From a virus (lineage: Duplodnaviria > Caudoviricetes): DNA of 30,780 bases. Positions 2,877 to 30,780 of the stretch are shown in pieces. How positions within the stretch are numbered: the first letter of the stretch is position 1; each line of letters starts with the position of its first letter. The notes under the pieces were generated by a model. The model made no database searches, was not told the DNA's origin, and saw nothing but the letters and a program-made list of their open reading frames with translations. The stretch lies in the IMG/VR virus record IMGVR_UViG_3300037604_000076, positions 1-30,780 of that record. One strand, written 5' to 3'. Position numbers and translations under genes: made by a program.

Positions 2877-3142
2877 TGTCCATGATCAAGCTTAGCGGCG
2901 TGTCAGTCGACACTTCGGATCCGTGTGCGCTCTACCAGGGTCTTTATCTGGTCAAGCTCAAACTGATCAGCGGCGAGATGACCGGGGAGTATTCGATCCA
3001 GTCTCCGGTGACTCGGGAGACGGTCATGTTCTCGCCGGCCAACCTGAAATCGCTCGACGCTGAAATGACCCGACTGCAGGCCGCATGCGAGCAGGCAACC
3101 AGCGGTCGGCGCCCGTCGCGGCGGATGCTGCTGAGATACTGA
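2876..3142 (+). CDS. Probable gpW-like head-tail joining/head completion protein
   Basis: 88 aa. Helix-beta hairpin-helix pattern (LKLISGE...YSIQ...TVMFSPANLKSLDAEMTRLQA) with a basic tail; coupled to the portal gene. Confidence 0.6.
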   Translation: MSMIKLSGVSVDTSDPCALYQGLYLVKLKLISGEMTGEYSIQSPVTRETVMFSPANLKSLDAEMTRLQAACEQATSGRRPSRRMLLRY

Positions 3143-3152
3143 AGGATTTGTC

Positions 3153-4073: not shown

Positions 4074-4087
4074 CCCAGGAGAAAATC

Positions 4088-4672
4088 ATGACCAGTCTTA
4101 TTGCCAGCATTCGGGCCGCCGTGCGTCCCGGAGCGGTAAACCCATGCCTCGACGATGTCGAAGGCGAACCCGAGGCAACCGCCGGCGCAGCCGATGCGGT
4201 GCCGACCACACCTAAACCAACCCCCGGAGGTGACATGTCTGAGAACCAGACTGTGGCCGGCGCAGAGCCTTCTGACGCCGCAACCAACGCCGCCGTCGCA
4301 GCCGCCGCTTCCGGTGGTGCAGACGGCTTCAAGCAGGCCATGGACCGCATGAATGCGATCCTTGGCGACGACAGCATCAAGGGCGATGCCAAACGGATGT
4401 CGGCAGCCGTCGAGCTGGCAAACGCTTCGCCGGACATGGCCGCCGATGCTGTCATCAAGTTTGTTTCGGCGAATGTGTCCGCAACGGCAACTGCAGCAGA
4501 AGCTGACAAACAGCAGGACAAACCTGCTCCGTCTCCCGTTGCCTACGAGCAGCAGCGGATGGCCGCGGCCGGCCTTGCGATGCCTGGTGGCAAGCCAGCC
4601 GCTGCCCCTGGCCCGAAAATCAACCGTGACGCCATCTTCGCGGCGCGTCGCACGACCCAGAAGGGAGCATGA
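4088..4672 (+). CDS. Probable capsid scaffolding protein (Nu3-like)
   Basis: RBS AGGAG. Ala/Pro-rich, low-complexity helical protein between protease and decoration genes. Confidence 0.6.
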   Translation: MTSLIASIRAAVRPGAVNPCLDDVEGEPEATAGAADAVPTTPKPTPGGDMSENQTVAGAEPSDAATNAAVAAAASGGADGFKQAMDRMNAILGDDSIKGDAKRMSAAVELANASPDMAADAVIKFVSANVSATATAAEADKQQDKPAPSPVAYEQQRMAAAGLAMPGGKPAAAPGPKINRDAIFAARRTTQKGA

Positions 4673-5058
4673 CCATGCCCACCAGTTTCACCGAAACGCC
4701 GCGCGACCTTGCGTTCATCCTGTCGGAAGCAAGCGGCACCCGCTCACGGGACGTGCTCACCATCCTGTCCGGCGCTGGCAAGCTCGACGCCGGAACCGTG
4801 CTCGGCAAGCTAACGACCGGCGGCAAGTATGTTGCCTCACCCAATGCCGAGACGGTGGACATCGAGGGTGCGGAAACCGCAACAGCGATCCTCTGCTACG
4901 AGGTCGACGCCACCAGCGCCGATGTTGACGCCGTCTGCATCACCGGCGACGCGGAGGTCAAGGACTCCATGCTGGTGTTTGAGGCAACCGTCAACGATTC
5001 AACCAAGCGCGCCGCGAAGCTCACACAGCTTCGTGCGGTGGGCATCAAGGCACGATAA
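4669..5058 (+). CDS. Head decoration protein (lambda gpD-like)
   Basis: SEASGTRSRD, AGTVLGK, GAETATAIL, QLRAVGIKAR motifs; immediately before the capsid gene. Confidence 0.88.
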   Translation: MTMPTSFTETPRDLAFILSEASGTRSRDVLTILSGAGKLDAGTVLGKLTTGGKYVASPNAETVDIEGAETATAILCYEVDATSADVDAVCITGDAEVKDSMLVFEATVNDSTKRAAKLTQLRAVGIKAR

Positions 5059-5069
5059 GGAGAACTTCG

Positions 5070-6080
5070 ATGCCCGCACCAAATGTACATATTGAAGACG
5101 CCTTCAGCCTGGAAAGCCTGACGGCGGCAGTCAACGCCGTGCCGTATCGGCCCGGCCAGATCTCGGCGACCGGGATCTTCGAGGAAGACAGCGTTACCAC
5201 GACGATGATCTCGATCGAGCGTCGCAACGGAAAGCTGGGCCTGATCGAGCCTTCCGAGCGCGGTGGACCTGGCGAGACGACCGATGATGAAGACCGCACC
5301 AAGGTGCCTGTCAACGTGCCGCACTACCAACGCGATGACAGCATCCTGGCCGACGAGGTCCAGAACGTGCGCGAGTTCGGCGAGGAAAGTTCGCTGGAAA
5401 CCGTCATCGGCCGGGTCAACCGCAAGGCGCAGCGTCATGCGCAGGATCTGACCATGACGCTGGAACACCAGCGCGTTGGCGCCCTCAAGGGCATTGTCAC
5501 GTCCAAGTCCGGCAAGACCCTGGTCAATCTCTACAATGCGTTCAGCATTGCTGTCCCGGATGCGGTTTCTCTCGAGCTCGATGTCGAAGCGACGCTTGTT
5601 ACCAGCTTGTGGCAGGACGTCGTCTATTCGATCGAGGATTCCCTCGATGAACCCTATTCGGGCATCCACGTCTTTACAGGCCGCGATTTCCACAAGGCGA
5701 TGTGGCTGCACAAGTCGGTGCGTGACACGTTCCTCTACAATGACGGAGCTTCTGTTCTGCGCCAGGACGTGCCGGATGTGTTCCAGTTCGGTGGAGCGAC
5801 CTGGGAGCGCTACAAGACAGGCGTCAAGGCGACCGCTGATCTGGGTGCGGCCTATATCGCGGCCAATGAAGCCCGCGTGGCGGTCCTCGGCGTTCCCGAT
5901 CTCTACATCACCCGGTTTGCCCCGGCGGATTACAACCAGACAGTCAACACCCCTGGCCTGCCGTTCTACAGCCAGGCGGTCGAGAAGCGGAACGGCAAGG
6001 GATACGAACTCGAAGTGCAGAGCAACCCGATTTCGATCTGCACCCGTCCCGAAGTGCTGCGCAAGCTGACGCTGACCTGA
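5070..6080 (+). CDS. Major capsid protein, lambda E family
   Basis: FSLESLTAAVN, TLEHQRVGALKG, LVNLYNAF, FAPADY, QSNPISICTRP motifs; RBS AAGGAG. Confidence 0.93.
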   Translation: MPAPNVHIEDAFSLESLTAAVNAVPYRPGQISATGIFEEDSVTTTMISIERRNGKLGLIEPSERGGPGETTDDEDRTKVPVNVPHYQRDDSILADEVQNVREFGEESSLETVIGRVNRKAQRHAQDLTMTLEHQRVGALKGIVTSKSGKTLVNLYNAFSIAVPDAVSLELDVEATLVTSLWQDVVYSIEDSLDEPYSGIHVFTGRDFHKAMWLHKSVRDTFLYNDGASVLRQDVPDVFQFGGATWERYKTGVKATADLGAAYIAANEARVAVLGVPDLYITRFAPADYNQTVNTPGLPFYSQAVEKRNGKGYELEVQSNPISICTRPEVLRKLTLT

Positions 6081-6111
6081 TCCATCTGCCTCTTGAGGCA
6101 GACGGCATGAG

Positions 6112-6143
6112 AGAGGGGCCGGGTTGATGCCCGGTTCCTTTTT
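6112..6143 (+). terminator. Rho-independent terminator after the capsid gene
   Basis: GGGGCCGGG-ttgatg-CCCGGTTCC followed by TTTTT; preceded by hairpin TCTGCCTC-tt-GAGGCAGA (6085-6102). Confidence 0.65.
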
Positions 6144-6192
6144 CCAGGCGACCGCCCGCTGCGGTCCCCCGGCAAGAGGAAAGGACCCTACC

Positions 6193-6579
6193 ATGAGCAA
6201 GAAAATCAGCATTGCATTCCCGCAGGGCGGCATCGTGCCTGGCTCGGTGCTCGGCAAGAAGGAAGACCAGACATGCGCCGCGATGGAGCCGGTCTCTGTT
6301 CCTGAAGCCTATGGCCGGCATCTGATCGAGGACCGCTTTGCCGTCGAAATCACTGACGCCGGCAAGACGAAGAAGAAGGCGGAGGGCGGAGCAGGGAAGG
6401 GGGAAAAACCTGGCACTGCCAACCCGCCCAAGGATTCGCCGGAGATCACCGCCGCGAAGGCCGCCATCGTCGAGGCCGAGCAGCTTGTGGCCGCTTCAGG
6501 AACAGATGCCGCGGCCAAGGCTGAAGCGGAAGCCATGCTCAAAGCGGCGCAGGACAAACTGGCGCAGCTCCAGGCCTGA
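6193..6579 (+). CDS. Hypothetical head-associated protein (position of lambda FI)
   Basis: ATG 6193 with RBS AAGGA, downstream of the terminator. Lys-rich linker and Ala-rich helical C-terminus. Confidence 0.6.
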   Translation: MSKKISIAFPQGGIVPGSVLGKKEDQTCAAMEPVSVPEAYGRHLIEDRFAVEITDAGKTKKKAEGGAGKGEKPGTANPPKDSPEITAAKAAIVEAEQLVAASGTDAAAKAEAEAMLKAAQDKLAQLQA

Positions 6580-6581
6580 TC

Positions 6582-6965
6582 ATGGATCTGGAAACGGTGC
6601 GGGCAGGGCTGCCCTCGATGACACGGCAGGGTTTTGGCGAGAATGCCAATATCCTGCCAATGCGGGAGGGCAAGATGGCCGGCGCCGGGGCTGATCCGGA
6701 GCGAGAGGTGCAAGAGGATGTCCGGGGCCGTTTCGATTTTGCTCCGGAACTTGAGCAGATGGGCGGCGGCCGCTCTTCGGAAACCAACCGCGCCAACGTG
6801 ATCTCGCCGCACGCGAGCGTAAGCTTCGCACTTAGCGACCTGGCTTGGGTTCCGCAGCCAGGGGACCAGGTCGAGCGGCAGACGGCAGCACCGGAGCGCT
6901 ACAGGATTGACCGGATTCTGGAGCCTCTGCCCGCCGTGGTGCTTTGCGTGGTTTCGAGGATCTGA
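6582..6965 (+). CDS. Probable head-tail joining (head closure, FII-like) protein
   Basis: 127 aa, beta-rich with PQPGDQV...YRIDRI motif; synteny. Confidence 0.55.
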   Translation: MDLETVRAGLPSMTRQGFGENANILPMREGKMAGAGADPEREVQEDVRGRFDFAPELEQMGGGRSSETNRANVISPHASVSFALSDLAWVPQPGDQVERQTAAPERYRIDRILEPLPAVVLCVVSRI

Positions 6966-7762
6966 TGAGTATTGTTCGCCAGCTGGTGCAGATCGCGGTG
7001 GTCGAAGCGCTGCGCGGCCGGACGGCTGCGCTCGGCAATGTGTTTGACAGCAAGATGGACACGTTGCCCGGACTCTTGAAGGGCGGGGCTGAGCCGGTTC
7101 TGGTGTTCTCGATCGAAGAGTCGGTGGAAGACGCGGACGATGCGACGGACGGTTTTCTGGGGCGAGGCGGGCGTTTGACCGGGATGATGCAGTCGGCGGT
7201 GGCATCTGGAAAGGAAGTACGGAACGGGCAGGGCACGGTGACCGTACCCGTGCTCGGAGAAACGGATTCTGCATATGAAGCGCTGCTGAACATCATCGAT
7301 CGCCAGTGGCGTGCGGTTCTGCATGACCACGCCAATCCGTGGTCGATGGTGTTTCGCGATCTTGTAGTTTCCGTCGGACCCATACGCACAGTCCGCGCAA
7401 CCGATCCGGAAACCGGCACAAAGCACGCATGCCGGTTTTCACAGTTCGAGATCGAGACATTGCCGGAACCTCTGCCCGGCGATCCTATTGCCGATGCAAT
7501 CTCGGCAGGGTTGGCTTTGATGGCAAGTGACGGTGACGCCGCCTATGCCGCGCTGGCTGAGACATGGCAGGAGATCCTGGCATTGGGCGCGGATTGGCAG
7601 GACTGGGAGAAGCTGCAGTCCGCCCTGTTCGCTTCAAACAGCGAACTGCTCGCAGTCGGGCTCGGTCCGATCGAGGGTGATGAAGACAGAGATACGCCTG
7701 ACATGACCACAGGAACTCTTGTGGTCAATGATGGCGATCCGATTGAGGTCACCGAGCCATGA
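6965..7762 (+). CDS. Phage neck/tail-completion-like hypothetical protein
   Basis: TGATG coupling with the upstream gene. Acidic 265 aa; N-term IVRQLVQIAVVEALRGRTAALGNVFDS resembles tail terminator proteins. Confidence 0.5.
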   Translation: MSIVRQLVQIAVVEALRGRTAALGNVFDSKMDTLPGLLKGGAEPVLVFSIEESVEDADDATDGFLGRGGRLTGMMQSAVASGKEVRNGQGTVTVPVLGETDSAYEALLNIIDRQWRAVLHDHANPWSMVFRDLVVSVGPIRTVRATDPETGTKHACRFSQFEIETLPEPLPGDPIADAISAGLALMASDGDAAYAALAETWQEILALGADWQDWEKLQSALFASNSELLAVGLGPIEGDEDRDTPDMTTGTLVVNDGDPIEVTEP

Positions 7763-12731: not shown

Positions 12732-12905
12732 ATGGCCGCCAAGATCGACCCCAAAGCCAAGTACGTGGTGGTGCTGACCCGCGCCGTAACCCGTGGGCCG
12801 CATATCCACCGGGCGCGTGTGCCAATCCGGATGACCGGCGCGTTCTTGATAGCGCTCAGAGAGGAGGAAGGCGATGCCATCATTGCCACTGCCAACAAGG
12901 TCTAG
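12732..12905 (+). CDS. Small hypothetical protein (57 aa, not in the ORF track)
   Basis: RBS AGAGGAG; ATG 12732 to TAG 12905: MAAKIDPKAKYVVVLTRAVTRGPHIHRARVPIRMTGAFLIALREEEGDAIIATANKV. Confidence 0.7.
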   Translation: MAAKIDPKAKYVVVLTRAVTRGPHIHRARVPIRMTGAFLIALREEEGDAIIATANKV

Positions 12906-13857
12906 CGGCTACGAGGTCACCGGACAGCACGTCGCCAATGCCGAGCTGTTCAATGCGGTCCTCAGTGACATTCACGCATGGCTGACTGAGCTCTCCGGCA
13001 CCTTCCAAACCATCACAGAACTCGAGCAGTCGACCATCGACCAGTCGCTGGCGGTGATCGCCCAATCGGTCGAGCCGCAGATCCTTGCGCTGCTCGCCAC
13101 GATCGCCCAGGCGCAGACCCAGATCGACGAGATCGTCAACACCGGCGTTGCCGGCACCAATGTCACCATCGCGGCCTATGGCGAGCTGTTGACTGAGGCG
13201 ACCAACGTGCAAGCGGCCGTGCAGGCTTTGGTGGATGCGATTGCAGCGGCGCTGCCATCTGTTGATGGCAACGAGGGCAAGGTTCTCAAGGTCGTCGAGG
13301 GCGCGCCTGCCTGGGGCGATGTAATCAGCGTTCTCTATCGGGCCTATGTAGATCGCGATCAGTTGCGCTCGATCGATGGCCCGGCCGGCACGATGGCGCT
13401 GGTCGAAGGGCTCGGTCTGTTCGTCTGGGTGGAAGGATCCGATCAGCCGGATGATGACGAGACCGCACTCGCCACGTCATCCGGTGTTTGGCTGCTCAAT
13501 GCCGCATCCTGGGATCTCGCATTCGCCTATTGGCTGCCAGAGATCGAGGCGATCAAGAACCGGGTCGCGCTGACCGGGGAAGCGGTTTGCAACCTTTCCT
13601 CTGTTGCCTCAAACAATTCCGCTGATTTTACTGCCACGGTACCGGGAGCGGCTATCGGCGATACGGTTGTTGCTACCCCGCCAGCTGCTTTGATGACTTC
13701 GCTTACCACGACCCTGAGCTTCCATGCATGGGTGTCTAGCAGTGACACGGTCACAATCAGATTGGTCAATTCTTCCGCTTCTACCGCCATGTTGAACCCC
13801 GATGTGATCGGGCCTTTGAACGCCTGGCGGGTTGCTGTCTTCAAAGGAGTAATCTGA
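12874..13857 (+). CDS. Tail fibre/receptor-binding module protein 1
   Basis: RBS GAGGAGG. N-terminal coiled coil, tailspike-like GLFVW...DDD...GVWL motif, C-terminal beta domain (VPGAAIGDTVV...DTVTIRLVN). Confidence 0.6.
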   Translation: MPSLPLPTRSSGYEVTGQHVANAELFNAVLSDIHAWLTELSGTFQTITELEQSTIDQSLAVIAQSVEPQILALLATIAQAQTQIDEIVNTGVAGTNVTIAAYGELLTEATNVQAAVQALVDAIAAALPSVDGNEGKVLKVVEGAPAWGDVISVLYRAYVDRDQLRSIDGPAGTMALVEGLGLFVWVEGSDQPDDDETALATSSGVWLLNAASWDLAFAYWLPEIEAIKNRVALTGEAVCNLSSVASNNSADFTATVPGAAIGDTVVATPPAALMTSLTTTLSFHAWVSSSDTVTIRLVNSSASTAMLNPDVIGPLNAWRVAVFKGVI

Positions 13858-13858
13858 C

Positions 13859-14950
13859 ATGGGCATGATCAGGGCTATGCGCCTTCTGAACGCCGCCACA
13901 TCCGGCAACCTGAGTGGGGCTGAGATTGAAACTCTGCTGACGACCGGTGATCAGTTGGGAGAGTTTCAACAGCTTCTCTCTCTGAAGGGACAGGTTGGCT
14001 TGCTGGCTTCGTCGTCGATTGCGCTCACAAATATGCTCGGTTCTGCAACCGCCCGATCAGCGATATTCTCTTCGCCCGTCGCCTCTGCCGAAATCTTCTC
14101 GTCTGAATTGTCAGCGAACATCGTGGCAGCTTCGGCGGATGCAATGAGCACTTTGGCTGCCTCGCCAATCGGGCTTTCGGAAATGGCAAAGTCAGTCGGC
14201 TTTTCCGCGATTGTTGCCGATGCAGACGCAATGGACACGCTTGCAGCAGCACCTTTGGCAATGGACGCGATCTATAACCAACCGCGCGCAATACAGAAAA
14301 TCATGCCGTCAGCGTGGGGTGTTTACGCGCCGCACGCCGATCAATTTGCGCTCGCAGGGGACTTGGTTGGGACATGGAAAGACGCGTCCGGAAACGGGCG
14401 TAACTTCTTCGCCGCGACCAATAACAGGCCCACTTTCATAAGCGAGAACAGCATCAACGGGTATTCGACGGTGAAGTTCGACAACTCCCTCAACAATCGG
14501 ATGTCCCTATCGTCTCTGTTCGACTCGACCGAATACACGATGTTTTTTGTGTATCGAAGGCTAGAAAGTGCACCAAGCGCGCTGATCGGTGACGGCAATG
14601 CGGACAGCTTTGTAACAAGCTCCACCACTTCTTTTGTGGCTTACGAGGGTGGTTCTGGCAGCACGTTCAGCGGCGTTTCGCCAGCAGCGGTAAACACATG
14701 GGGAATATCCAGGGTGCGACGCACAGGTCCGTCGGAGGCCTTTCTTTCACTAAACGGTGGCACGGAAAGTCCGGCCATCACAATCAACATTCCCAATTTT
14801 GCCAACGTGACCCTCTATCTCGCGTGGGGCAACTCAACAGCTTACGCAGATATGCAGTATGCCGAAATCATACTGCTCAAGAACACGTCGGCCATTGATG
14901 GTGAAGTCACCCGCGTCACCAACCTCCTGAAAACGAAGTATGGGCTGTAA
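13859..14950 (+). CDS. Putative receptor-binding protein with helical repeats and a C-terminal LamG/ConA-like domain
   Basis: Ala/Ser-rich repeats (IVAASADAMSTLAAS / IVADADAMDTLAAA); C-term VGTWKDASGNGRN...PTF...INGYSTVKFD...YTMFFVY...AEIILL...LKTKYGL. Confidence 0.6.
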   Translation: MGMIRAMRLLNAATSGNLSGAEIETLLTTGDQLGEFQQLLSLKGQVGLLASSSIALTNMLGSATARSAIFSSPVASAEIFSSELSANIVAASADAMSTLAASPIGLSEMAKSVGFSAIVADADAMDTLAAAPLAMDAIYNQPRAIQKIMPSAWGVYAPHADQFALAGDLVGTWKDASGNGRNFFAATNNRPTFISENSINGYSTVKFDNSLNNRMSLSSLFDSTEYTMFFVYRRLESAPSALIGDGNADSFVTSSTTSFVAYEGGSGSTFSGVSPAAVNTWGISRVRRTGPSEAFLSLNGGTESPAITINIPNFANVTLYLAWGNSTAYADMQYAEIILLKNTSAIDGEVTRVTNLLKTKYGL

Positions 14951-17397: not shown

Positions 17398-17703
17398 ATG
17401 ACCGAGAAACTCCAAAGTGTGACGGTGGAACTGGAATTCCCAGTCTCTTACGAGGGGCGCGAGATCGCCTCGCTCACCTTCCGCCGCATGAAGGCGCGCG
17501 ATGCGCTGGCGGGCGAGGGCATCGAGAACGAAGTGCGCGCCGGCTATGCGATCTTCGCCACGCTCGCAGGCGTGGACATCGCCGTGATCGAGGAGCTCGA
17601 CATCGAGGATCTGGCCAAGGTCGGCGACGAGGTGAAGCCGCTCATGGGAAAGCGGTTGGCGGAGATGACGGAAAAGGCGAACCCGTCTCCTGGCGGGAAC
17701 TGA
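17398..17703 (+). CDS. Tail assembly chaperone (G/E-like)
   Basis: VELEFPV, LTFRRMKARD, FATLAGV...IEELDIEDL motifs; RBS GAGGA. Confidence 0.9.
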   Translation: MTEKLQSVTVELEFPVSYEGREIASLTFRRMKARDALAGEGIENEVRAGYAIFATLAGVDIAVIEELDIEDLAKVGDEVKPLMGKRLAEMTEKANPSPGGN

Positions 17704-17831
17704 TCATCCAGATGGGTCGCCAGACCCACTCATCGCTTGAAGAAGTCAAGGAGATGGAGATCGACGAGTTTCTCGCCGATGCCCGCGCGCTCGCCAAGAT
17801 AACAGCCCGTGAGAACCGTGAAACCAAATAG
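17646..17831 (+). CDS. -1 frameshift extension of the tail chaperone (GT / E+E' product, about 144 aa in total)
   Basis: In-frame slippery heptamer G-GGA-AAG at 17646-17652. The -1 frame reads on to WRELIIQMGRQTHSSLEEVKEMEIDEFLADARAL, a GpE-like peptide. Confidence 0.85.
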   Translation, partial: GKAVGGDDGKGEPVSWRELIIQMGRQTHSSLEEVKEMEIDEFLADARALAKITARENRETK

Positions 17832-17833
17832 TA

Positions 17834-17870
17834 TTGACTCATTCTGAATGGGAAGCCTACAAATTGTAGG
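17834..17870 (+). promoter_or_regulatory. Putative sigma70 promoter of the moron with an overlapping palindrome
   Basis: TTGACT (17834-39), 17 nt, CTACAA (17857-62), resembling the rhizobial CTTGAC-N17-CTATAT consensus; CCTACAA-A-TTGTAGG at 17856-17870. Confidence 0.55.
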
Positions 17871-17901
17871 TACCGAAAACACAACCATTTGGGAAATTTT
17901 G

Positions 17902-19704
17902 ATGGCGCGCCAAGTGTATGAAGGTTCTTCGATTACGATTCCCTTTTTCCGAAATTCAACAGGAGACACTGCAACTTTAGCGGGATATTTCTATATTGAT
18001 GGCGGAACTGCTGAGGCGGGTCTCGACTATTTCGACAAGACATCTGGTCCGCTGTACGGGGCTGCTGGGCCTGCCGGGCAATACGCCTATAGTTTTACCG
18101 TCAGTACGAAATCGGATTCGTTGATTGAAGGCACCGAGTCTTTCACGGTTGTCCAGTATGATGTTAGCGAAAGTGGCAACCGGTTCGACTTCGACTACGT
18201 GGCGGTGGATATCATCGACGCCTCCTTTGCCACCATATATTACGACTATAACGGCGACGGGGTCGTCGACCCTGTTGAAGTGAATGCTTACAATGCGGCG
18301 AACATTTCCAGGGACCTCCAGTTTGAGATCTTGGAGAACAAGATCAAAAAGGACAAGTATGACGAGCTACTGAAAGAACTTGAAGTCGCGGAAGGTGACC
18401 TCAAAAGTGAAATTGCGCAGCGTGGCGTATCTCTCACCCATATCGATGAATTCATCATAAAAAGGATTACAAAGAAGTTCACTCCGAACCTTGCGGATAA
18501 AGCGCGTGATGTGATGTACGCCGTATCTGACCTAGGTTACTCCGCCCAAGATCTTCAAAATGATGCCAATGCTCGCAACCTGGCAGATGTTCTTGTTAAG
18601 ACGCTAGGTGTTGCCGGTTCCACTGGAAACGTTCCGGCGGAGATTGCTTCAATCCTGGGAGAGATCGCTCTGACAGGACTGGCATCCGCAGAGTTGGGCA
18701 TCATCAGGGAAAAGCAGGAAAATCTGCTGAAGCAGCAGTCGGAAGTTGCGTTCGATATAATCGAATATGAAAGGGCGCTCGAAAGCATTACCAAAATAAA
18801 GTCGAATATTAGCCCAGAATTCAAGCTTGTATCAGACAGCGACCACCCAAGTCCGATGTCGCTGAACGACCGTGGCGAGATTATTGAGTATTTCGACGGC
18901 GCTTTCCGTCTGGGTACGACCGGGGATGATGTCTTCATCGTCAATCGCGAAAGCGGAAGTGTTTATGTGTTCGGCGAAGAAGGATTTGATACAATTGACA
19001 TTGATGCGGACAGGGCCTCTGTCGTTATCAGCAAACTGGATGAGCGGACGATCTCCGTGCTCGACGTTCATGGTTACAGGGTTCTCTTGGATGTCGAGAA
19101 AATTCAGTTCCAAGATGGTGCGGTACTTGCTTCTTCTTTGGATGATGTTTTTTGGGCAGACCAGACAGATGATGTTAAGCTAGTAGCTTCTACATACAAT
19201 TACTTGACAAACAAGATCCCCACTGTTGGCGGTTTTGAATATCTTATCGCTTCGGATGACAACAAGAATGATCTGAGTGACGACTACTACAAGCCATTCA
19301 ATCTGGAAAACAAATATATCAATTTTGCGAGCAACCTGGCATTCCAGGGCGGCGGTCGGGAGGTCTTTGCGGCAAAATTCGGCGAACGTAGCTTCGAGGA
19401 TGTCATCAATCTGTCCTTTGAAGAAATCATTGGGACCCAGAAAGCAGAAAACAGCGGCATCAATGTCGAGGACGCTCTAGCCTTTTTCCAGAACGCTCTA
19501 GGATTCTACAGCAAGGTGGCAAAAGAGCGTGTTGTGTCGAGCACTGTCGACCTGGAAGATGCAACCAAGGCGGTCATCGTTGGGTCAATACTGAATGAGG
19601 CTATCAAGTCCGGTGTCGGCAATTACGCTGAAGCCGTAGGAGACCTGGTAGTAAACATTGTCGCCGAACCAACCGAGGTCGATTTCGGCGCAATGCTTAT
19701 CTAG
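17902..19704 (+). CDS. Moron: Calx-beta / EF-hand / RTX-like protein with a C-terminal RsaA N-terminal-type anchoring domain (600 aa; alternative start 17848)
   Basis: Calx-beta pattern (VYEG..GTAEAGLDY..SDSLIEGTESFTV..VDIID); EF loop DYNGDGVVDPVE; GTTGDDVF/GEEGFDTI; VEKIQFQDG; C-term TYNYLT..PTVGGFEYLI..NDLSDDYY..FNLENKYINF..NLA matches Caulobacter RsaA NTD as recalled. Low GC. Confidence 0.8.
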   Translation: MARQVYEGSSITIPFFRNSTGDTATLAGYFYIDGGTAEAGLDYFDKTSGPLYGAAGPAGQYAYSFTVSTKSDSLIEGTESFTVVQYDVSESGNRFDFDYVAVDIIDASFATIYYDYNGDGVVDPVEVNAYNAANISRDLQFEILENKIKKDKYDELLKELEVAEGDLKSEIAQRGVSLTHIDEFIIKRITKKFTPNLADKARDVMYAVSDLGYSAQDLQNDANARNLADVLVKTLGVAGSTGNVPAEIASILGEIALTGLASAELGIIREKQENLLKQQSEVAFDIIEYERALESITKIKSNISPEFKLVSDSDHPSPMSLNDRGEIIEYFDGAFRLGTTGDDVFIVNRESGSVYVFGEEGFDTIDIDADRASVVISKLDERTISVLDVHGYRVLLDVEKIQFQDGAVLASSLDDVFWADQTDDVKLVASTYNYLTNKIPTVGGFEYLIASDDNKNDLSDDYYKPFNLENKYINFASNLAFQGGGREVFAAKFGERSFEDVINLSFEEIIGTQKAENSGINVEDALAFFQNALGFYSKVAKERVVSSTVDLEDATKAVIVGSILNEAIKSGVGNYAEAVGDLVVNIVAEPTEVDFGAMLI

Positions 19705-19750
19705 AAGAATTCCAGTCCTTTGCGCCGCCTAAGGCGGAAGTGAAGCAGTT

Positions 19751-19781
19751 AAGGGCACCCCTATAACCGGGGTGCTCTTTT
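19751..19781 (+). terminator. Rho-independent terminator of the moron
   Basis: AAGGGCACCCC-tataacc-GGGGTGCTCTT followed by TT. Confidence 0.75.
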
Positions 19782-19937
19782 GATTCTTGATCGTGGCTGT
19801 TGACCGGGTATCGGACACCTTGGTCCTGTTGATAGTCGCGCACAGTTGCGGCCTTTTCGCGTCAAGGAGAATAACAACTGGCCGAAGACCATAGCCCGCA
19901 CAACGGCTGCTGCCTCCAAAGATAGATAGGTTCGTTC

Positions 19938-22439
19938 ATGACCACGCTGACATCCAGCCTCATCCTGTCGCTTGTCGATCGGGTGACAGCCCCCGCACGC
20001 GCTGCTGCCCGCTCGGTTGCCGGCCTTCGTGCCTCCGCTGCAAGAAACGCGGCGGAGATGAACGCCATGCAGGGGCAGATGCTGGCGGCTGTAGCTGGCG
20101 CCGTGGCGCTCACCAACGCCATTCGCGCGCCAGTGCGGGCGGCGATGGAGTTCGAAAGCGCCATGGCGGACGTGCGCAAGGTGGTCGACTTCGATACGCC
20201 AGACGGCTTCAAGAAGATGTCAGACGACATTCTCGACATGACACGGGTTATCCCGATGGCCGCGACCGAGATTTCCTCGATCGTGGCGGCTGCAGGGCAG
20301 GCCGGCATGCAGGGAAGCGAGTTGCTCAAGTTCGCGGAGATGGCCGCCAAAGTGGGCGTCGCATTCGATATTCCGGCCAACCAGGTGGGCGACAGCCTTG
20401 CCAAGATCAAAACCGCTCTCGGCATGACGGTGGCCGAAGTGAGCAGCCTTTCCGACGCGATCAACCACCTGTCCAATACGAGCGCATCGAGCGCGCCCGA
20501 CCTGCTCAACTTCATGGAGCGGGTCGGTTCTGTCGGCAAGCAATATGGCTTCACCGCCGAGCAGACTGCCGCGTTGGGTTCGGCCATGATCGCGGCCGGT
20601 GCGCCGGCGGAGGTCGCCGCAACCTCGTTCCGCAATGTCGGCCGAGCTCTCGCAAGGGGCGCGAGTGCAACCAAGTCACAGCGCAATGCTTTCAGGCTGC
20701 TCGGGCTTGATTCAAAGAAGGTTGCAAAAAGCCTCAATGAGGATGCTGTCGGCACGTTAAATGACGTGATCGCGCGGATCCGGTCGCTGCCCGAGCATGT
20801 CCGGGCGTCGACAATATCGGATCTGTTCGGCGATGAGGCGCGCGCCATCATGCCGCTGATCGAAAACGCCGAGCTTCTCGAGGGGGCTTTGTCGTCGGTG
20901 GCGGACGAGACCGCCTATGCGGGGTCTGCCCAGAAGGAATTCGAGGTTCGCGCCAAAACCACGGCGAACACGCTGCAGCTGCTGCAGAACCAGTTCAAGG
21001 AAGTCTCCATCCGTATCGGTTCGGCTCTGCTTCCGGGCATCGAAAGCACCGCGCGTGCCCTTATGCCGGTGCTCTCGGCCATTGCCGGATGGGTGAAGGC
21101 CAACCCTGCGCTGACCGCGCAGATCGTTGGTCTTGTGTCCACGCTGGTGGGGCTCAGGATTGCCACCCTCGCAGCGCGTTGGGCGTTTCTGTTCCTCAAG
21201 GGCGGGGTGCTGGATGTGGCGCTTGCGGTGGCGCGCTCTTCCCAAGCGGTTGTTGCCGCCGGCGGCAAGATCGCCAATTTCACCCGAATGGTCCGTCGGC
21301 TTGGCATGTCGATGACGCTCCTGTCTGCCACTGGCGGAACCGGCGTCATGGCTGGGCTCGTCAAGGGGATGAGCGCCGCGCTCGGGGCAGTGGGCCCGAT
21401 TGCGGCTTCTATTGGGGCGGCAATCGCGGGGATCAGCGCACCGGTCTGGGGCGTCATCGCCGTTGTCGCCGGGCTTGCCTTGGCGGTTTACAAATACTGG
21501 ACTCCGATTTCGGAATTCGTCACCGGGTTCGCCTCGGTTGTGGGGTCGGCGCTGGGCGAGGCCATCTCGGCCATTGCCGGGTTCGGCTCACGGATCGCAG
21601 CGGCCATAGGTGGATGGGCTGCGGACAAGATCGTCGACATCGGAGAACTGCTCGGCATCGATGAAAAAACCATACGGGCGGGCATGGATGTCGCCATCCA
21701 CGAAGCTCATCGCGGAGCCCAGCGGATCATTGACACAATCAAGGCGATCCCGGCAGCCGTCTCCGGATGGGTCGGCGATCTGTTCTCGAGGAACGAATAT
21801 TCTGACCAGGCAACGGCCGAATTCCGATCGGCTGGTGAACGTGCAGGTGAGGCCCTTGTCAATGCGGTCAAGAATGCGGTCGCCGCGCTTGGATCGATCG
21901 CCAGCGAAATGGCAAGCGTCGGGCGGCAGATCATGGACATGCTGCTCGAAGGTATCAAGGCCGGCGCCGCCGCCGTCATCGATTATGTCAGATCGATCGG
22001 TTCCCGCATCAAGTCCGGCATAACCGGTGCTGCATCGGGTGCATTGAGCCGGATTAGAAACGCGGTTGGATTTGGCGGCAGGCCGGATGCAGCGAATGAC
22101 AATTCGGCACTCGCCGGCACCCGCGCAGCCGGCGGCGCCATTGTCGGCGGTCGCACCTACCTCGTCGGCGAACACGGCCCCGAACTCGTCACGCCCTCGC
22201 GCTCCGGCTATGTGCACGATGCAGAAACCACGGCTTCGATGCGCGCCGGTGGGCGCAGTGCTGCCGCGGGCGGCGCCGGCGGGCAGACCGTGCACCTGGG
22301 CGGCGTCACCATCCATGTGAATGCCCAACCGGGCATGGATCCGCAGGCGATTGCCCGGGCGGTCAATGAGGCGCTCGGCCAGATCGCCGGTGATGCGCTT
22401 TCGGGCGGGCAGTTCGATCAGGGCTGGAGCGTGGCATGA
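19938..22439 (+). CDS. Tail tape measure protein (TP901 family)
   Basis: FESAMADVRKVVD, DAINHLSN, LFGDEA; Ala/Gly-rich amphipathic repeats; C-term RAAGG...YLVGEHGPELV. Confidence 0.95.
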   Translation: MTTLTSSLILSLVDRVTAPARAAARSVAGLRASAARNAAEMNAMQGQMLAAVAGAVALTNAIRAPVRAAMEFESAMADVRKVVDFDTPDGFKKMSDDILDMTRVIPMAATEISSIVAAAGQAGMQGSELLKFAEMAAKVGVAFDIPANQVGDSLAKIKTALGMTVAEVSSLSDAINHLSNTSASSAPDLLNFMERVGSVGKQYGFTAEQTAALGSAMIAAGAPAEVAATSFRNVGRALARGASATKSQRNAFRLLGLDSKKVAKSLNEDAVGTLNDVIARIRSLPEHVRASTISDLFGDEARAIMPLIENAELLEGALSSVADETAYAGSAQKEFEVRAKTTANTLQLLQNQFKEVSIRIGSALLPGIESTARALMPVLSAIAGWVKANPALTAQIVGLVSTLVGLRIATLAARWAFLFLKGGVLDVALAVARSSQAVVAAGGKIANFTRMVRRLGMSMTLLSATGGTGVMAGLVKGMSAALGAVGPIAASIGAAIAGISAPVWGVIAVVAGLALAVYKYWTPISEFVTGFASVVGSALGEAISAIAGFGSRIAAAIGGWAADKIVDIGELLGIDEKTIRAGMDVAIHEAHRGAQRIIDTIKAIPAAVSGWVGDLFSRNEYSDQATAEFRSAGERAGEALVNAVKNAVAALGSIASEMASVGRQIMDMLLEGIKAGAAAVIDYVRSIGSRIKSGITGAASGALSRIRNAVGFGGRPDAANDNSALAGTRAAGGAIVGGRTYLVGEHGPELVTPSRSGYVHDAETTASMRAGGRSAAAGGAGGQTVHLGGVTIHVNAQPGMDPQAIARAVNEALGQIAGDALSGGQFDQGWSVA

Positions 22440-25218: not shown

Positions 25219-25694
25219 TGCTGGTTCTCGTCACCCTTCTGAAATGGGGACTTCCCGCTCTCATTCTTGTGGCGCCAATTGCTGCTTCAGCCTGGTTTCC
25301 GCCGGCACGGCGCGTGCTGATGTTCGCCCTGCCGATTCCACTCTTCGTCATCGCCGCTGCTGGCGCATGGCTTTGGCTCAACCAGGAGAGCGCGGTTCTC
25401 CATGCAGTGCAGGTTCGCGTCAAGGAGATGGTCGCGGGCGCCGAGATCGCGGCACTTGAGGCCAGGCTTGAGGCTGAAGAAAAGATCAGTGCGGCCCGCG
25501 GGCAAGTCGCTGCAGAAGCCAATCGCCGCCTGATGGTCGAGATCGACGCCCGGGTAAACCTCTCACAGCGGCTGGCCGCCATCCAGACAGAAAACGAGAT
25601 TCTCAATGACGACCTGGCAGATCTGCTTTCGCGCCCTGTTGCCCGCGATTGCGCTGTTGATCCTGATCTCCTTGGCCGGCTGCGCGCCAGGTAG
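25218..25694 (+). CDS. Putative inner-membrane spanin (Rz-like)
   Basis: RBS GAGGAG; N-terminal TM segments, coiled coil, C-terminal Cys (DCAVDPD); overlaps a lipoprotein gene. Confidence 0.7.
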   Translation: MLVLVTLLKWGLPALILVAPIAASAWFPPARRVLMFALPIPLFVIAAAGAWLWLNQESAVLHAVQVRVKEMVAGAEIAALEARLEAEEKISAARGQVAAEANRRLMVEIDARVNLSQRLAAIQTENEILNDDLADLLSRPVARDCAVDPDLLGRLRAR

Positions 25695-25965
25695 GTTCAT
25701 TGCGGCGGAGCGGGAGAGGGCGGGGGCCGGGCAGGTGGACAATGCGCTTGCTGTCGCGGAAGAGGCGGGGGCGATCGGGCGGTCTCTGCCTGAGTATCCC
25801 GACCTCTGCCGCCGGGAGCATCGATCACGGGTCTCGGGTGGCGACCGGCTCGACGCCGCTCTCGTCAAGACAGACCGGGCGCTCGCCCGCGCCAACGGTC
25901 AGATTCGGGAATGCGGCACCTGGTACGACGAACTCCGGACAGGCTTTGAAGGCGGGGCGCAATGA
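25606..25965 (+). CDS. Putative outer-membrane spanin lipoprotein (Rz1-like)
   Basis: Signal peptide ending in lipobox LAG-C (Cys26); starts within the last 89 nt of the Rz-like gene in another frame; Pro/Cys pattern LPEYPDLCR...ECGTWY. Confidence 0.75.
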   Translation: MTTWQICFRALLPAIALLILISLAGCAPGRFIAAERERAGAGQVDNALAVAEEAGAIGRSLPEYPDLCRREHRSRVSGGDRLDAALVKTDRALARANGQIRECGTWYDELRTGFEGGAQ

Positions 25966-26369
25966 CGGAGGCCACAAGTCTCAATGACATCTACCGGTCG
26001 ATCGGTGAGCTCACGGGGGCTGTGAAGGCGCTCGGCGACAAGATCGAGGACAATGAGCGCCGCAACGTCGCGGCCATCGATCAGGCCAATGAAAGCCGCG
26101 CCAATGTGCACCGAAGGCTCGATGAGTTCACCGCCACGGCGGCTGATCTTGCCAAGCGCACCAGCCATCTCGAAGCCGGGATCAAGTCGCTCACACACGA
26201 AATGGGTGACATGAGGATGGTGACCGATGACGTGAAAGCCATGCGAGAGCAGGCAAAAGGCGCAGGGACTTTGGGTCAGTGGCTGCTTCGGTTCGGGGGG
26301 TGGGTGCTGGGGGCGGCTGCTACCGTGGTCAGCCTCTACACCTGGATCACCGGAAGACCGCCACCATAG
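25962..26369 (+). CDS. Coiled-coil protein with a C-terminal TM segment (DUF1515/XhlA-like, lysis-associated)
   Basis: IGELTGAV, ESRANVHRRLDE, coiled coil and a Gly-rich hydrophobic C-terminus; ATGA-coupled. Confidence 0.65.
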   Translation: MTEATSLNDIYRSIGELTGAVKALGDKIEDNERRNVAAIDQANESRANVHRRLDEFTATAADLAKRTSHLEAGIKSLTHEMGDMRMVTDDVKAMREQAKGAGTLGQWLLRFGGWVLGAAATVVSLYTWITGRPPP

Positions 26370-26438: not shown

Positions 26439-26750
26439 CTAGTGGCTTTGATCTTGCTCGCCAAAAAGGATTTCATAAGTGACAGGGTCATAAAACCGCA
26501 TCAACTCCTTGACGAAGTCCCGCAGATCCATGCCCAACGCTTCGGCCCAGACCTCATAGCGGTCTGGCGGCAGCCTGCCGCGGCCGTTCTCGAGCTGGGA
26601 AATAAAGGTGTAGTAGGTAATGCCCACCTTGTCGGCAAACTGCCTTTGCGACAGCCCGGTCGCCTCGCGCTTTTCGCGCATCCACAATCCGCCAGCCACG
26701 CGCAGATTCCGGACTTCCTCCGCATCCCGGCGCTGAATGTTGCTATACAT
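26439..26750 (-). CDS. XRE-family helix-turn-helix regulator
   Basis: REKREATGLSQRQFADKVGI...ISQLENGRG HTH_3 motif; RBS GGGGA. Confidence 0.88.
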   Translation of the reverse strand: MYSNIQRRDAEEVRNLRVAGGLWMREKREATGLSQRQFADKVGITYYTFISQLENGRGRLPPDRYEVWAEALGMDLRDFVKELMRFYDPVTYEILFGEQDQSH

Positions 26751-27000: not shown

Positions 27001-27108
27001 GAAACAGTCGCAACAGAGCGGCATGTCTGGATGGAGTCCAGCCGAAGTGAATTTCTTTGGCTGAGTATGTTTTTCAGGCGCTTTTATTATCTTTACGGGA
27101 GATACCCA

Positions 27109-30100
27109 ATGCCAATCGCTGATCTCACAACGCTCGTCAATGCGACGACGCAGAACCTTTCGCAGTTGAAGGGGCTGTCGATCGCATACAACCTTCTGGG
27201 TGGTGCGCCGTCAATCGCGGGCTACACAGCGCTGATCAACGCCAACAACGCGTCGAACTTCGGAGCTGGTCCAGGCCCAGTGTTCAATGACGAAAATGTC
27301 TACATCAACACGCTCAATGCGCTTTATCAGGGAAATCCGGACGCCAAGACCGCGTTTGATGCGATTGTCTCTGGCGGCGCGTCTCTGTCTGACAAGCTCA
27401 CCCTGGTCTATAACAAGCTGGTCCCTGCGGATGCCCGCACTGATGCAGGGCTGAACTTCTTTAAGTCGCAGTCTGCATTCTACGAGGCTCGCGCAGCTGA
27501 GCTCGGTGTTGCCGGTTCGAATGGAGCGGCACTCGTTGCCTACGCCAGCCTCGCGAAGATCGCGGTTGATAATGATATTGGCGGCCTTGGTGATTCGATC
27601 AATGACCTCGTTGCAGCCGTCCTCGACGGATCGGCAGCGTTGCCGGAAGACGGTGCTGCGTTCACGCCGCTGGAAACCGCTGACGGAACCGCCTTCGATG
27701 GCGATGACGTTAATCCGGATGCTGTTACGCTGACCAATGGCATCGATGTCGTGACCGGCAACGAATTCAGCGCTCCGCGTGGCTTCACGCCGGGTGGCAC
27801 CGATCAGGTCAACACGCTTGACAATGATGACATTCTCACCGGCACGGGTGCCAACCCGACGTTGAACCTGACCTTCGTCACCGACGCGGACACCGGCCTC
27901 AACAACATCACGCCGACCTTGAAGGGCGTCGAGACTGCAAATGTTCGCTTCGAAGGCGGGATCGGTTCGACTCAGACCCTCGATCTTCAGGATTCGGCGG
28001 GTATGAAGAACGTCAACCTGTCGAGCATTGCTGAAGCGCAGGTCGTTTCGGTTCAGAACATTGCTGAGGCAGGGACGAACAACCTGTCGATCAACAATTC
28101 GCAGTCGCCGAACAGCACGATCAACTTCAGGTACATCGACAGTGCAGTGGCCGGTGCTGCCGACACTGCGAACCTGCTCCTCAACAACGCAGGTACCGGT
28201 TTCCTCAATCTCCAGAGCATGACCGGCAAGGAAGGCATCGAAACCCTCAACCTGACCTCTTCGGGCGGCGCCAACTCCGTTGGTCAGACCACGGCTCAGG
28301 ATCTCGGTACCGTGAATATCGCCGGCGACCAGAGCCTTCTGCTCGGCAACTCTGCAGACACCACGAATGGTGCTGGCGGAACTGTGGAAGCGACACATTA
28401 TGGTAACGGTTTTGCAAACGTTGCCGGTTCCCTGTCAAAGGTCGATGCATCTGGCTTGAAGGCTGGGCTTGAGGTCAACCTCGGCACGGAAGTTGTTGCG
28501 CTCAAGGACGGTACCTCTGGCGTGGACGTTGATTTTGCCTTCACCGGTACCGGCAGTGACGACACTGTTCGTCTCCTTTCCGGCCTCAACAAGGGCGATG
28601 CATTCGACCTTGGTGAAGGTACCGATACGGTCTCTCTCTTCCAGAGCGCGGGCGCAGGCTCGATCAAGGGCACCGAGTCGGTCAACATCCTTTCTGGCCA
28701 TGACGCCGGTACAGGTGCTGACACGATCAACTTTGATACGTCGATCGCACCGGACCTGAAGGATGTCTTCATCCGGAATGAAGGTCAGGACCTCGTTGCA
28801 GGTAACTGGGTTTCGAAGGCTGAAGCCATGACCGTCAATCTGACAAAGGTCTCCACCGAAGTTGCGGCCAATCTGACTGTTGCGCATGGTACCACCGGCA
28901 ATAATGGCTTGGCTGGTAACCTCATCACCGTTGCTCCGGCAACTGATGGCGCGTCTGACACTGTGGGTCTGAAGATCGTTGACGGTATGAATGCCGATCC
29001 GCGCTTCAACGTCCAGCTTCAGGCGGTCGCTTATGAAAATGTTACGCTGACCGACAGCGACACCGAAGACAACACTGTTCAGCTTGGTTTGGCTGGCAAC
29101 GTGCTGCCTCACACCGGGACGCTCACCGTCGCTGGTGGACAGGCTGGGAAGTTCTTCAACCTCGATGCTACAGCCAACTTGCTTCGTAAGGACGCCTCGG
29201 GTGCTGCCACTGACGGTGTAGGCGTTGCCGACGTTGGTGCTGGTGGTGCGGAGCGCTTCTCAGGCGCGAAGATCGATGCAACCGGTACCGCAAGCGACGT
29301 GTTCGTGCGCGTCAGCACCCTTACAGACGCCAAGGGCGTTGAGCAGCCAGGTGGTGGTCAGACCATTCAGATGGGCTCTGGTAATGACTGGGTCGTCTTC
29401 GACGAACTGGGTGACACCACTGCTGGTCTGACGATCAACGACACCGTGGCCGGTGGTGCTGGCAATGATACGCTCGCCATCGACGGTAATGGCGTCAAGG
29501 TCAACATCAGCGCTTCCGAGTGGACCAATGTTACCGGCTTCGAGAACATCCACCTCGTGGGCAACGGTGTTGCTGGCGTGAACACGGATACCGTTGCAGG
29601 TAAGGGTGATGCCTATGGCCGCAACAGCTACAACCTGACCCTGACCAACGATCTGATCGCTGCGAATGGTGTGGGTGGTGTCATCAACATCATCAACGAC
29701 AACGACTCTGCAAACGATGTTGTCGGCGTGGCTGATACCGCTGGAACAGGTACAGAGCGTGGCGTAACGATCGATGCGCGTACTCTGAGTGCACAGAACA
29801 GCTTTACCTATAATGGTGAGGAAGGTGGTTCCCGAACGGCTGATCGCTTCATCCTGTCCGACGCCAATGTCAACGGCAAGGCCGTGATTGACGGTGGTGC
29901 TGTTCTGGGTGGTGGTAACGCTGCCATCAACACTGCCAATACGGACGTTATGGAAGTCCGCAACTCGGCAGTGGTGACCACTGGTGACCTGACCGGACTG
30001 AAGAACATCGGTACGATCGAGTTCACCAACGACCAGGCTGCTCCGCAGACGTCTGTTCTGCAACTGGACAACGCATCGGTTGATGCGCTGGTGAACTCGA

Positions 30101-30780
30101 GCCGGGTTGCTGCGACAGGCTTCGAGGAAACGCTGACGGTTCGTGCCTACGACAACCCGACTGTTCCAGCTGCAACTACAACGTTGAACGTTGACGCCTC
30201 TCAGGTGACCAACGCTGCGCTGCAGGTTAATATCGCTGGTGCCGGTGGTGCTGACACGATCGTCGGTGGTGCAGGTAATGATGCGATCGATGGCGGTGCT
30301 GGTATCGACTCCATCGGTTTGGGCAGTGGTGGCACTGATACTGTTGTCTTTGACGCAGCGAATGCTACATCAGCGGACGGTGATCTGATCACCGGCTTCA
30401 CTGCTGGAGCAGGTGCCGGGTTTGATATCATGCAGCTCGATGTGTCTGATGTTGGAGCGGGTATCATTGCTGGACTGACCGCTAACGTGGTCAACGTTGC
30501 TGGTTCGGCCAATAATAGCATTATCGTGGATACTGCTAGTACCGATTACGCCAACTTTGCCGCGGCAGAAGCAGCGGTTCAAGCTGCCAATGCGGCTACA
30601 ACCGACTATCTGCTGACGTTCTTCAACACGACAACTAATCGTCTTGAGGTTTATGCAGACGCAGATTCGAGTGCTGCCGGTGGCGAAGTGTTGCTTGCGA
30701 CCTTCGATGACGTGGCTGTAACTGGTGCTGCCAACACGTTCATGAATACACTGACGGCGGGCAACTTCGACCTCGTCTAA
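27109..30780 (+). CDS. S-layer protein, RsaA-like, type I secreted (1223 aa)
   Basis: RBS GGGAGA plus ATG 27109. No signal peptide or Cys; rich in Gly/Ala/Thr/Asn/Asp; helical RsaA-like N-domain, then TLTNGID, beta-helix repeats, RTX nonamers GGAGADTIVGGAGNDAIDGGAGIDSI and C-terminus LTAGNFDLV. Codon use suggests high expression (GGT/GCT/AAC). Confidence 0.85.
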   Translation: MPIADLTTLVNATTQNLSQLKGLSIAYNLLGGAPSIAGYTALINANNASNFGAGPGPVFNDENVYINTLNALYQGNPDAKTAFDAIVSGGASLSDKLTLVYNKLVPADARTDAGLNFFKSQSAFYEARAAELGVAGSNGAALVAYASLAKIAVDNDIGGLGDSINDLVAAVLDGSAALPEDGAAFTPLETADGTAFDGDDVNPDAVTLTNGIDVVTGNEFSAPRGFTPGGTDQVNTLDNDDILTGTGANPTLNLTFVTDADTGLNNITPTLKGVETANVRFEGGIGSTQTLDLQDSAGMKNVNLSSIAEAQVVSVQNIAEAGTNNLSINNSQSPNSTINFRYIDSAVAGAADTANLLLNNAGTGFLNLQSMTGKEGIETLNLTSSGGANSVGQTTAQDLGTVNIAGDQSLLLGNSADTTNGAGGTVEATHYGNGFANVAGSLSKVDASGLKAGLEVNLGTEVVALKDGTSGVDVDFAFTGTGSDDTVRLLSGLNKGDAFDLGEGTDTVSLFQSAGAGSIKGTESVNILSGHDAGTGADTINFDTSIAPDLKDVFIRNEGQDLVAGNWVSKAEAMTVNLTKVSTEVAANLTVAHGTTGNNGLAGNLITVAPATDGASDTVGLKIVDGMNADPRFNVQLQAVAYENVTLTDSDTEDNTVQLGLAGNVLPHTGTLTVAGGQAGKFFNLDATANLLRKDASGAATDGVGVADVGAGGAERFSGAKIDATGTASDVFVRVSTLTDAKGVEQPGGGQTIQMGSGNDWVVFDELGDTTAGLTINDTVAGGAGNDTLAIDGNGVKVNISASEWTNVTGFENIHLVGNGVAGVNTDTVAGKGDAYGRNSYNLTLTNDLIAANGVGGVINIINDNDSANDVVGVADTAGTGTERGVTIDARTLSAQNSFTYNGEEGGSRTADRFILSDANVNGKAVIDGGAVLGGGNAAINTANTDVMEVRNSAVVTTGDLTGLKNIGTIEFTNDQAAPQTSVLQLDNASVDALVNSSRVAATGFEETLTVRAYDNPTVPAATTTLNVDASQVTNAALQVNIAGAGGADTIVGGAGNDAIDGGAGIDSIGLGSGGTDTVVFDAANATSADGDLITGFTAGAGAGFDIMQLDVSDVGAGIIAGLTANVVNVAGSANNSIIVDTASTDYANFAAAEAAVQAANAATTDYLLTFFNTTTNRLEVYADADSSAAGGEVLLATFDDVAVTGAANTFMNTLTAGNFDLV

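Follow-up and report, generated by a model that had tools for sequence, protein, structure and literature searches.

The virus record IMGVR_UViG_3300037604_000076 of IMG/VR (30,780 nt; this whole stretch is termed the window below) combines lambda-type terminase, portal and capsid genes with a P2-type contractile tail, as assigned by Pfam and PHROG searches. Between two of its tail genes lies an open reading frame (ORF) of 600 amino acids (17902..19704, plus strand). A sequence-only reading had proposed that this ORF is a prophage moron and that its product ends in the domain by which the Caulobacter S-layer protein RsaA is anchored to lipopolysaccharide (LPS). The left border is formed by the gene of the tail assembly chaperone with its frameshifted extension (17398..17831, plus strand; slippery sequence GGGAAAG at 17646, stop codon at 17829-17831), of which 17398-17703 matches Phage_TAC_7 (E 9e-13). 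The right border is the tape measure gene (19938..22439, plus strand), identified by Pfam and PHROG searches. An alternative in-frame ATG at 17848 would extend the ORF to 618 amino acids, but the alignment with its homologue P0022 sets in at residue 3 of the 600-residue form.

In all six relatives with a tube protein identity of at least 88%, the tape measure gene directly follows the chaperone frame, i.e., the slot is empty. The DNA of the closest relative, L001, is about 89% identical left of the slot and matches again about 30 bp later. A match to the moron was absent from all 34 tube-bearing loci, several of which are duplicates of one phage. The tape measure start could be placed in 28 of these loci, and the gap from the tube gene to the tape measure gene amounted to at most 662 bp in 18 and to 763-1957 bp in 10 of them; in the window, it is 2620 bp. 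Since the slot is empty in the six closest relatives, sequence comparison identifies the ORF as a real and recently inserted moron, as had been proposed. The moron itself was not found in viral, genome or metagenome contigs, from which near-identical records may be missing, nor in annotated phages, plasmids or the five genomes scanned. The moron, whose frame is intact, is covered by contigs assembled from four pond metagenome runs. With a GC content of 0.485 and a GC content at third codon positions (GC3) of 0.54, it differs from the sheath, tube, chaperone and tape measure genes (GC 0.63-0.64, GC3 0.74-0.87); the spot counts given earlier (26/60 and 38/60) were exact.

A candidate promoter (TTGAC...CTACAA; 17834..17862, plus strand) is predicted 2 nt past the chaperone stop codon. 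It is the single match in the window, on both strands, of the pattern TTGAC-17/19-YTANA, which was composed post hoc from this very site. Downstream of the ORF, a terminator-like hairpin with a T run (19751..19779, plus strand) has a folding energy of -19.8 kcal/mol, and the terminator scan returned four such sites in the window as compared to 2.6 in shuffled sequences. Of the self-contained unit described in the sequence-only reading, the terminator was thus recovered, while the promoter keeps the status of a candidate. A decayed stretch ahead of the tape measure gene (19878..19937, plus strand) resembles the chaperone 3' end plus spacer of the empty-site relative L010 and is likely an insertion scar. 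Similarity of this stretch to the chaperone end of the window itself was not significant (111 of 500 shuffles). The slot is a general insertion site: other morons occupy it on the reverse strand (L004 11209-12093, L023 11442-11789, L024 11393-12438 and L033 11013-11363), one of them being an R2K-clade ATP-grasp protein.

The C-terminus of the moron protein (residues 429-590; 19186..19671, plus strand) was recognized as a true RsaA N-terminal domain (RsaA_NTD), i.e., an LPS-anchor domain, by profile and structure-sequence comparison, in agreement with the sequence-only reading. First, Pfam model PF19198 matched with an E-value of 2.2e-31 and 109 bits (cut-off 27), covering model positions 6-166 of 185. 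Second, RsaA chain 6T72 matched with an E-value of 2.4e-24, and the similarity to RsaA was confined to residues 420-584. Third, the equivalent of the RsaA calcium loop (residues 77-100; limits from PMC6978808) aligned without gaps and with 11 of 24 residues identical; D90 and D93 are kept, and D79 and D83 are replaced by E and A, respectively. Thus, the anchor is homologous to that of RsaA (PF19198; PDB 6T72, 6Z7P and 5N8P). Unlike RsaA, the moron protein carries it C-terminally and lacks the lattice-forming beta-helix; it is not an S-layer protein. Among 152 retrieved proteins matching the anchor, the domain was C-terminal in 67, N-terminal in 71 and unplaced in 14. The C-terminal anchors are joined to proteases, glycosidases, a lipase, cadherins and FG-GAP repeats, according to a scan of 41 proteins (38 of the C-terminal class and three others). 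The term 'S-layer mimicry' used earlier was too strong, since a lattice domain is absent and bacterial cargo proteins often end in RsaA_NTD.

Ahead of the anchor, the protein comprises a Calx-beta-like domain, a helical domain of no known family and a short beta linker. Residues 1-125 (17902..18276, plus strand) form a Calx-beta/Ig-like beta domain, recognized by phmmer through the Calx-beta repeats of P0046 and P0144 among the best 150 of 598 matches for the passenger; they had no match of their own when Pfam was searched by region, and a DxNxDG putative calcium motif follows at residue 115. Residues 126-310 (18277..18831, plus strand) are predicted to form a domain of long helices, the turn of which is rich in Gly and Ala and mildly hydrophobic. 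This low-confidence prediction stems from a single-sequence AlphaFold model (pLDDT 35), which served for rough helix and strand positions only. Residues 337-405 (18910..19116, plus strand) form a degenerate RTX/serralysin-type beta linker, as judged by sequence comparison and a motif scan; canonical GGxGxD repeats or a PF00353 match were not found in the protein by Pfam or motif scan, nor was an M10 (metzincin) domain by Pfam. The protein is acidic (pI 4.3; 4.28), contains no cysteine and has no hydrophobic N-terminus (hydropathy 0.19 over the first 40 residues), which agrees with the earlier statement that a signal peptide is missing, as far as hydropathy rather than a signal-peptide predictor can tell. 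In these traits it conforms to an RTX/T1SS (type I secretion system) substrate.

The sole passenger homologue found, P0022, which is also the one homologue of the helical domain, is 29% identical over 444 columns and ends in DUF4214 instead of RsaA_NTD. Nothing further emerged for the passenger from Atlas, word-index, PDB-profile and Pfam-by-region searches. Because P0022 joins the same passenger to DUF4214, sequence comparison indicates that the anchor is a swappable module. The helical domain also bears on a different function, namely that the protein is a surface-tethered, membrane-active effector in which residues 126-310 would act as a pore-forming or contact-killing module on the lysogen. 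Long helices around a Gly/Ala-rich turn in the low-confidence model, with a best hydropathy of 1.48, would suit such a module; P0040 is laid out similarly, its hairpin being more strongly hydrophobic (2.03), and has a DUF677 match, and Cdz of Caulobacter is a surface-retained killer that employs a T1SS. However, the hydropathy lies under that of a typical membrane helix and is weaker still in P0022 (1.16), P0040 has no detectable homology to the moron protein in the helical region, a toxin match was not found by Pfam, PDB profile or Atlas, and no immunity-like ORF of at least 60 amino acids lies between the moron and the tape measure gene. An effector role is regarded as rather improbable. P0040 itself, an RsaA_NTD cargo with a strongly hydrophobic, DUF677-like helical hairpin, is a candidate surface-tethered membrane-active protein.

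In a tree of 44 hand-picked anchor rows, the moron anchor fell among canonical cargo anchors and was separated by a 100/100 split from a clade holding the S-layer-like gene at the window end (described below) and the protease anchors of viral contigs L095 and L096. Derivation of the moron anchor from the neighboring S-layer gene was ruled out by this split. Both anchor clades occur together in G095, G201 and marine contigs. An anchor clade unlike the host-type S-layer anchors, together with foreign codon use, would be expected if the moron were a recently captured neutral passenger, useless here as its anchor mismatches the O-antigen of the host. This appears very doubtful given the intact frame and the putative expression signals, the coverage by contigs from four pond runs and the joint occurrence of both clades elsewhere. 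A late role was also considered, in which the gene would be read with the tail operon and its product carried on the virion or freed at lysis as an LPS-binding accessory or decoy. The tail genes are on the same strand, and Ig-like and LPS-binding domains would suit adsorption; yet the gene is missing from close relatives with near-identical tails, has its own terminator and candidate promoter and gave no PHROG match, and all its features fit T1SS cargo, which leaves this role with a slim chance.

The sequence-only reading had passed over an S-layer-like gene at the window end and further anchored cargo in the phage family. The gene (27109..30780, plus strand) encodes an acidic protein of 1223 amino acids with a divergent N-terminal RsaA_NTD, a beta-rich body and five RTX repeats. 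Its N-terminal anchor scores below the PF19198 threshold and is 26% identical to the moron anchor (E 2e-8). A profile (A4) of this N-terminus and nine homologues retrieved RsaA 6T72 as its sole PDB match (E 6e-4). The six best Foldseek matches of the structure model were all RsaA (E 1e-5 to 2e-3), with TM of only 0.13-0.24 and a pLDDT of 61. By these sequence and model comparisons, the gene is RsaA-like along its length. It is divergent from an HTH_3 regulator gene (26439..26750, minus strand), a pairing that recurs in related prophages and chromosomes. Both genes come directly after the lysis module, whose last gene, DUF1515-like (25962..26369, plus strand), marks the point where likeness to close relatives stops, and together they are probably the more striking cargo of this prophage. 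The record stops at the stop codon of the S-layer gene, which therefore may or may not lie inside the prophage. In place of the S-layer cassette, the lysis genes of L001 are followed (17796-19952) by a protease-like ORF and by one for a putative DNA adenine methyltransferase, both labelled by sequence appearance.

The 53 bases 27095-27147, which comprise the ribosome site and the first codons, are exactly common to a second S-layer paralogue in runs X1, X2 and X4. This paralogue is present in contigs from three of the four metagenome runs, and one low-depth contig bridges the repeat as in the window. Since the repeat is shared with the paralogue, the link between the gene body and the DNA upstream of it crosses this repeat; the repeat could permit recombinational S-layer switching or lead to mis-assembly.

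The tube protein of the window shares 67% identity with its counterpart in Aurantimonas phage AmM-1 and 94-96% with those of prophages in metagenome-assembled genomes (MAGs) of Hoeflea, which makes a Hoeflea-like bacterium of the Rhizobiaceae the probable host. The T1SS component PrtD scored above the cut-off in four of five hosts of related phages or S-layers. RsaA-like S-layer genes and a PrtD-type T1SS are present in the probable host lineage, in line with the host S-layer T1SS assumed in the sequence-only reading. Among 201 family genomes, the S-layer type of the window occurred in two, which are the same two that carry full-length C-terminal RsaA_NTD cargo, and PrtD was above the cut-off in both; a third genome has a partial C-terminal RsaA_NTD match at a contig end. 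Phage genes were seen beside one of the nine N-terminal-type copies in these two genomes. The S-layer profile matched none of 401 order-level genomes, a draw without positive control.

Comparison of sequences indicates that cargo with such anchors, up to entire S-layer-like genes, is found time and again in the phage family. In G201, a related prophage (sheath and tube 72% identical) interrupts comM and carries, after the lysis genes and between the comM halves, an HTH gene and an S-layer gene of the same type; an exact-repeat search gave no att repeat, so that the split comM was used to define the ends of this prophage. The Hoeflea MAG G001 contains a prophage (G001:C1:109244-163634; L053, L088-L090) that is flanked by copies of a 44-bp repeat at tRNA-Pro and carries an integrase gene at its end. 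Its lysis genes are followed by an HTH gene, a DUF4214 S-layer-like gene, a methyltransferase gene and SapC, and its terminase is preceded by an M10-DUF4214 protease and a DUF4214-cadherin-RTX gene, which makes three DUF4214 genes in all. A G001 prophage remnant likewise has a DUF4214 S-layer-like gene after the lysis genes. Viral contig L094 carries an HTH gene and an S-layer gene ahead of the terminase, and contigs L092 and L093 carry C-terminal RsaA_NTD genes amid phage genes. The cassette is not universal, as L001, L010/L082, L017/L076 and L083 (one phage relative of G095) have no S-layer gene after the lysis genes. Within the G001 prophage, MethyTransf_Reg and FkbM methyltransferases were also observed, and the cassette contains a second copy of the 3' end of the final lysis gene. 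The remnant L080 (628-10387; G001:C1) has a PrtD-type T1SS ATPase on one side and a DUF4214 S-layer-like gene on the other.

Positions 1-7063 of the window recur with 100% identity on viral contig L096, where the gene of an M10 protease with an S-layer-type anchor lies upstream of the terminase. Although contig L095 matches L096 at 99% identity over 2.4 kb, a different pair of anchored genes occupies this position. This turnover of cargo between near-identical phages suggests an arms race and bears on whether the moron protein is instead a surface adhesin or general fitness factor, LPS-anchored for adhesion, aggregation or protection from predators without an anti-phage role. The Calx-beta-like N-terminus, the many bacterial relatives in which this anchor is joined to cadherin, Ig or FG-GAP passengers and reports of S-layers as predator barriers speak for an adhesin; the protein has only one small Ig-like domain, however, and, together with the turnover of cargo, this makes an adhesin unlikely. 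Of the products of the L095 and L096 genes (L096 9-1322; L095 2545-3606 and 3624-5486), two are M10 proteases and one, of 353 amino acids, belongs to no known family; all three bear S-layer-type anchors that Pfam misses.

The closest precedent in layout is SapA (Sap) of Caulobacter crescentus, which, like the moron protein, combines a passenger, an RTX-type linker and a C-terminal RsaA-NTD-like anchor and has no clear secretion signal. Residues 462-623 of the NCBIfam SapA model match moron residues 425-587 (70 bits as compared to a cut-off of 1200), which bears out the SapA-like layout claimed earlier. The moron protein differs from SapA in lacking a metalloprotease domain, in being phage-borne and in having a passenger of no known family; the full SapA layout is copied by the proteases of L095/L096 and the G001 prophage. 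Sap has been described as carrying its anchor C-terminally and appears to be secreted by a T1SS (PMC3034196). A second precedent is Psh (PP_1794) of Pseudomonas putida, a T1SS-exported RTX-DUF4214 protein that confers resistance to many phages (bioRxiv 10.64898/2026.09.02.748959). It resembles the moron protein in its T1SS type and its C-terminal helical, LPS-anchor-like domain, and P0022 ends in DUF4214 as Psh does. In contrast, Psh is chromosomal, adjoins its T1SS and has an RTX passenger, whereas the moron protein carries RsaA_NTD and would depend on the exporter of the host; the word 'prophage' does not occur in the main text of the preprint. The RsaA S-layer serves as receptor of Caulobacter phage phiCr30 (PMC13437554).

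The sequence-only reading had compared the locus with gp15 of HK97, a superinfection-exclusion moron (PMC3594210). The position between chaperone and tape measure genes and the GC contrast are common to both, as would be own expression signals if the candidate promoter is functional. However, gp15 is a small inner-membrane, YebO-like protein that blocks DNA entry and is without homology to the 600-aa moron protein, for which Pfam and PHROG gave no YebO-like match, and the genes in the slot of relatives are unrelated. Because of the P2-type tail, a tail type different from that of HK97, and the kinship with AmM-1 and Hoeflea prophages, the likeness to gp15 is a positional analogy only. In Methylophage Melnitz (PMC9004378), the nearest case in the literature searched, gene 23 has likewise been proposed to change receptors on the host surface; its label of 'putative S-layer protein' comes from annotation only, and the phage has no reported integrase. 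No prophage-borne RsaA_NTD or DUF4214 protein and no prophage S-layer conversion in Gram-negative bacteria was found in a literature search that covered mostly open-access papers; the Psh supplements may bear on novelty. The ingredients, namely morons, SapA and Psh, are precedented, while their combination on temperate phages with S-layer-like genes and fast-changing cargo was not found in print.

Known surface-converting prophages alter O-antigen chemistry or block DNA entry. The moron would act differently. In the lysogen, transcription would start from the candidate promoter at 17834, and the protein would be exported by the T1SS of the host through its C-terminal region, as proposed for Sap. 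It would then be clamped in a calcium-dependent manner onto the LPS O-antigen, as for RsaA, and the passenger would extend away from the cell, forming a bulky rod on its anchor. The most likely benefit would be that receptors in the LPS or the S-layer are masked. By the precedents of SapA, RsaA and Psh, export by a T1SS and LPS anchoring are considered likely, also when taken together with expression in the lysogen. The reading as a whole, i.e., a lysogen-made, T1SS-exported and O-antigen-clamped surface protein that helps to re-coat the cell and probably hides phage receptors, is evenly poised between right and wrong. That lower phage adsorption through masking is the selected benefit is suggested by the same analogies, somewhat tentatively. 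With similar reserve, S-layer conversion may be proposed for AmM-1-like temperate Rhizobiaceae phages, which would bring their own regulated S-layer gene and changing, T1SS-exported, LPS-anchored accessories, here SapA-like proteases and this orphan helical protein, and would thereby rebuild the outer coat of the lysogen to shut out competing phages.

Several observations weigh against receptor masking by an exported moron protein. The candidate promoter was not among the sites of a generic sigma-70 scan. The RTX-like motifs noted earlier are present as two degenerate nonapeptides at residues 337 and 357, and a Pfam RTX match is missing. C-terminal RsaA_NTD proteins with a named domain are mostly enzymes or adhesins, not known defences, and PADLOC gave no match for the moron. 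Given its different clade, the anchor may be mismatched to the O-antigen of the host. T1SS genes were not seen in the window, the true host lying outside it, and some relatives fill the slot with unrelated genes, such as that of the ATP-grasp protein in L004. Finally, O-antigen masking by Psh was modelled, not measured (bioRxiv 10.64898/2026.09.02.748959). In the present case, prophages appear to add protein to the cell coat through the anchor-and-export logic of the host itself. If this holds, phages would provide a path by which S-layers vary in Gram-negative bacteria, masking defences of the Psh type would have a counterpart on phages, and RsaA_NTD and DUF4214 would prove to be exchangeable tags for docking on LPS. 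The natural empty-site relatives and the att-bounded prophage with three cargo genes make the idea directly testable.

Further observations concern related S-layer loci and the remainder of the window. On the marine contig L097 (2500-19051), an S-layer gene 81% identical at the N-terminus adjoins an HTH gene; its further neighbors encode a DegT aminotransferase, a PglD-like acetyltransferase, a GDP-mannose dehydratase and an ABC-2 exporter, which would make an N-acetylperosamine-type O-antigen as in Caulobacter. On contig L098 (1415-10600), an HTH gene (93%) and an S-layer gene (83%) lie beside a ParA-like gene and three cargo genes (M10, CAP and M64) whose S-layer-type anchors are almost the same; the locus is possibly a mobile element. 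In the window, the tail-fibre region (12874-14950) has a lower GC content (0.59 and 0.54) and lacks a counterpart in the DNA of L001, as a variable host-range module. A 33-base stretch at 25581-25613 assembles as a multi-copy repeat in run X1.

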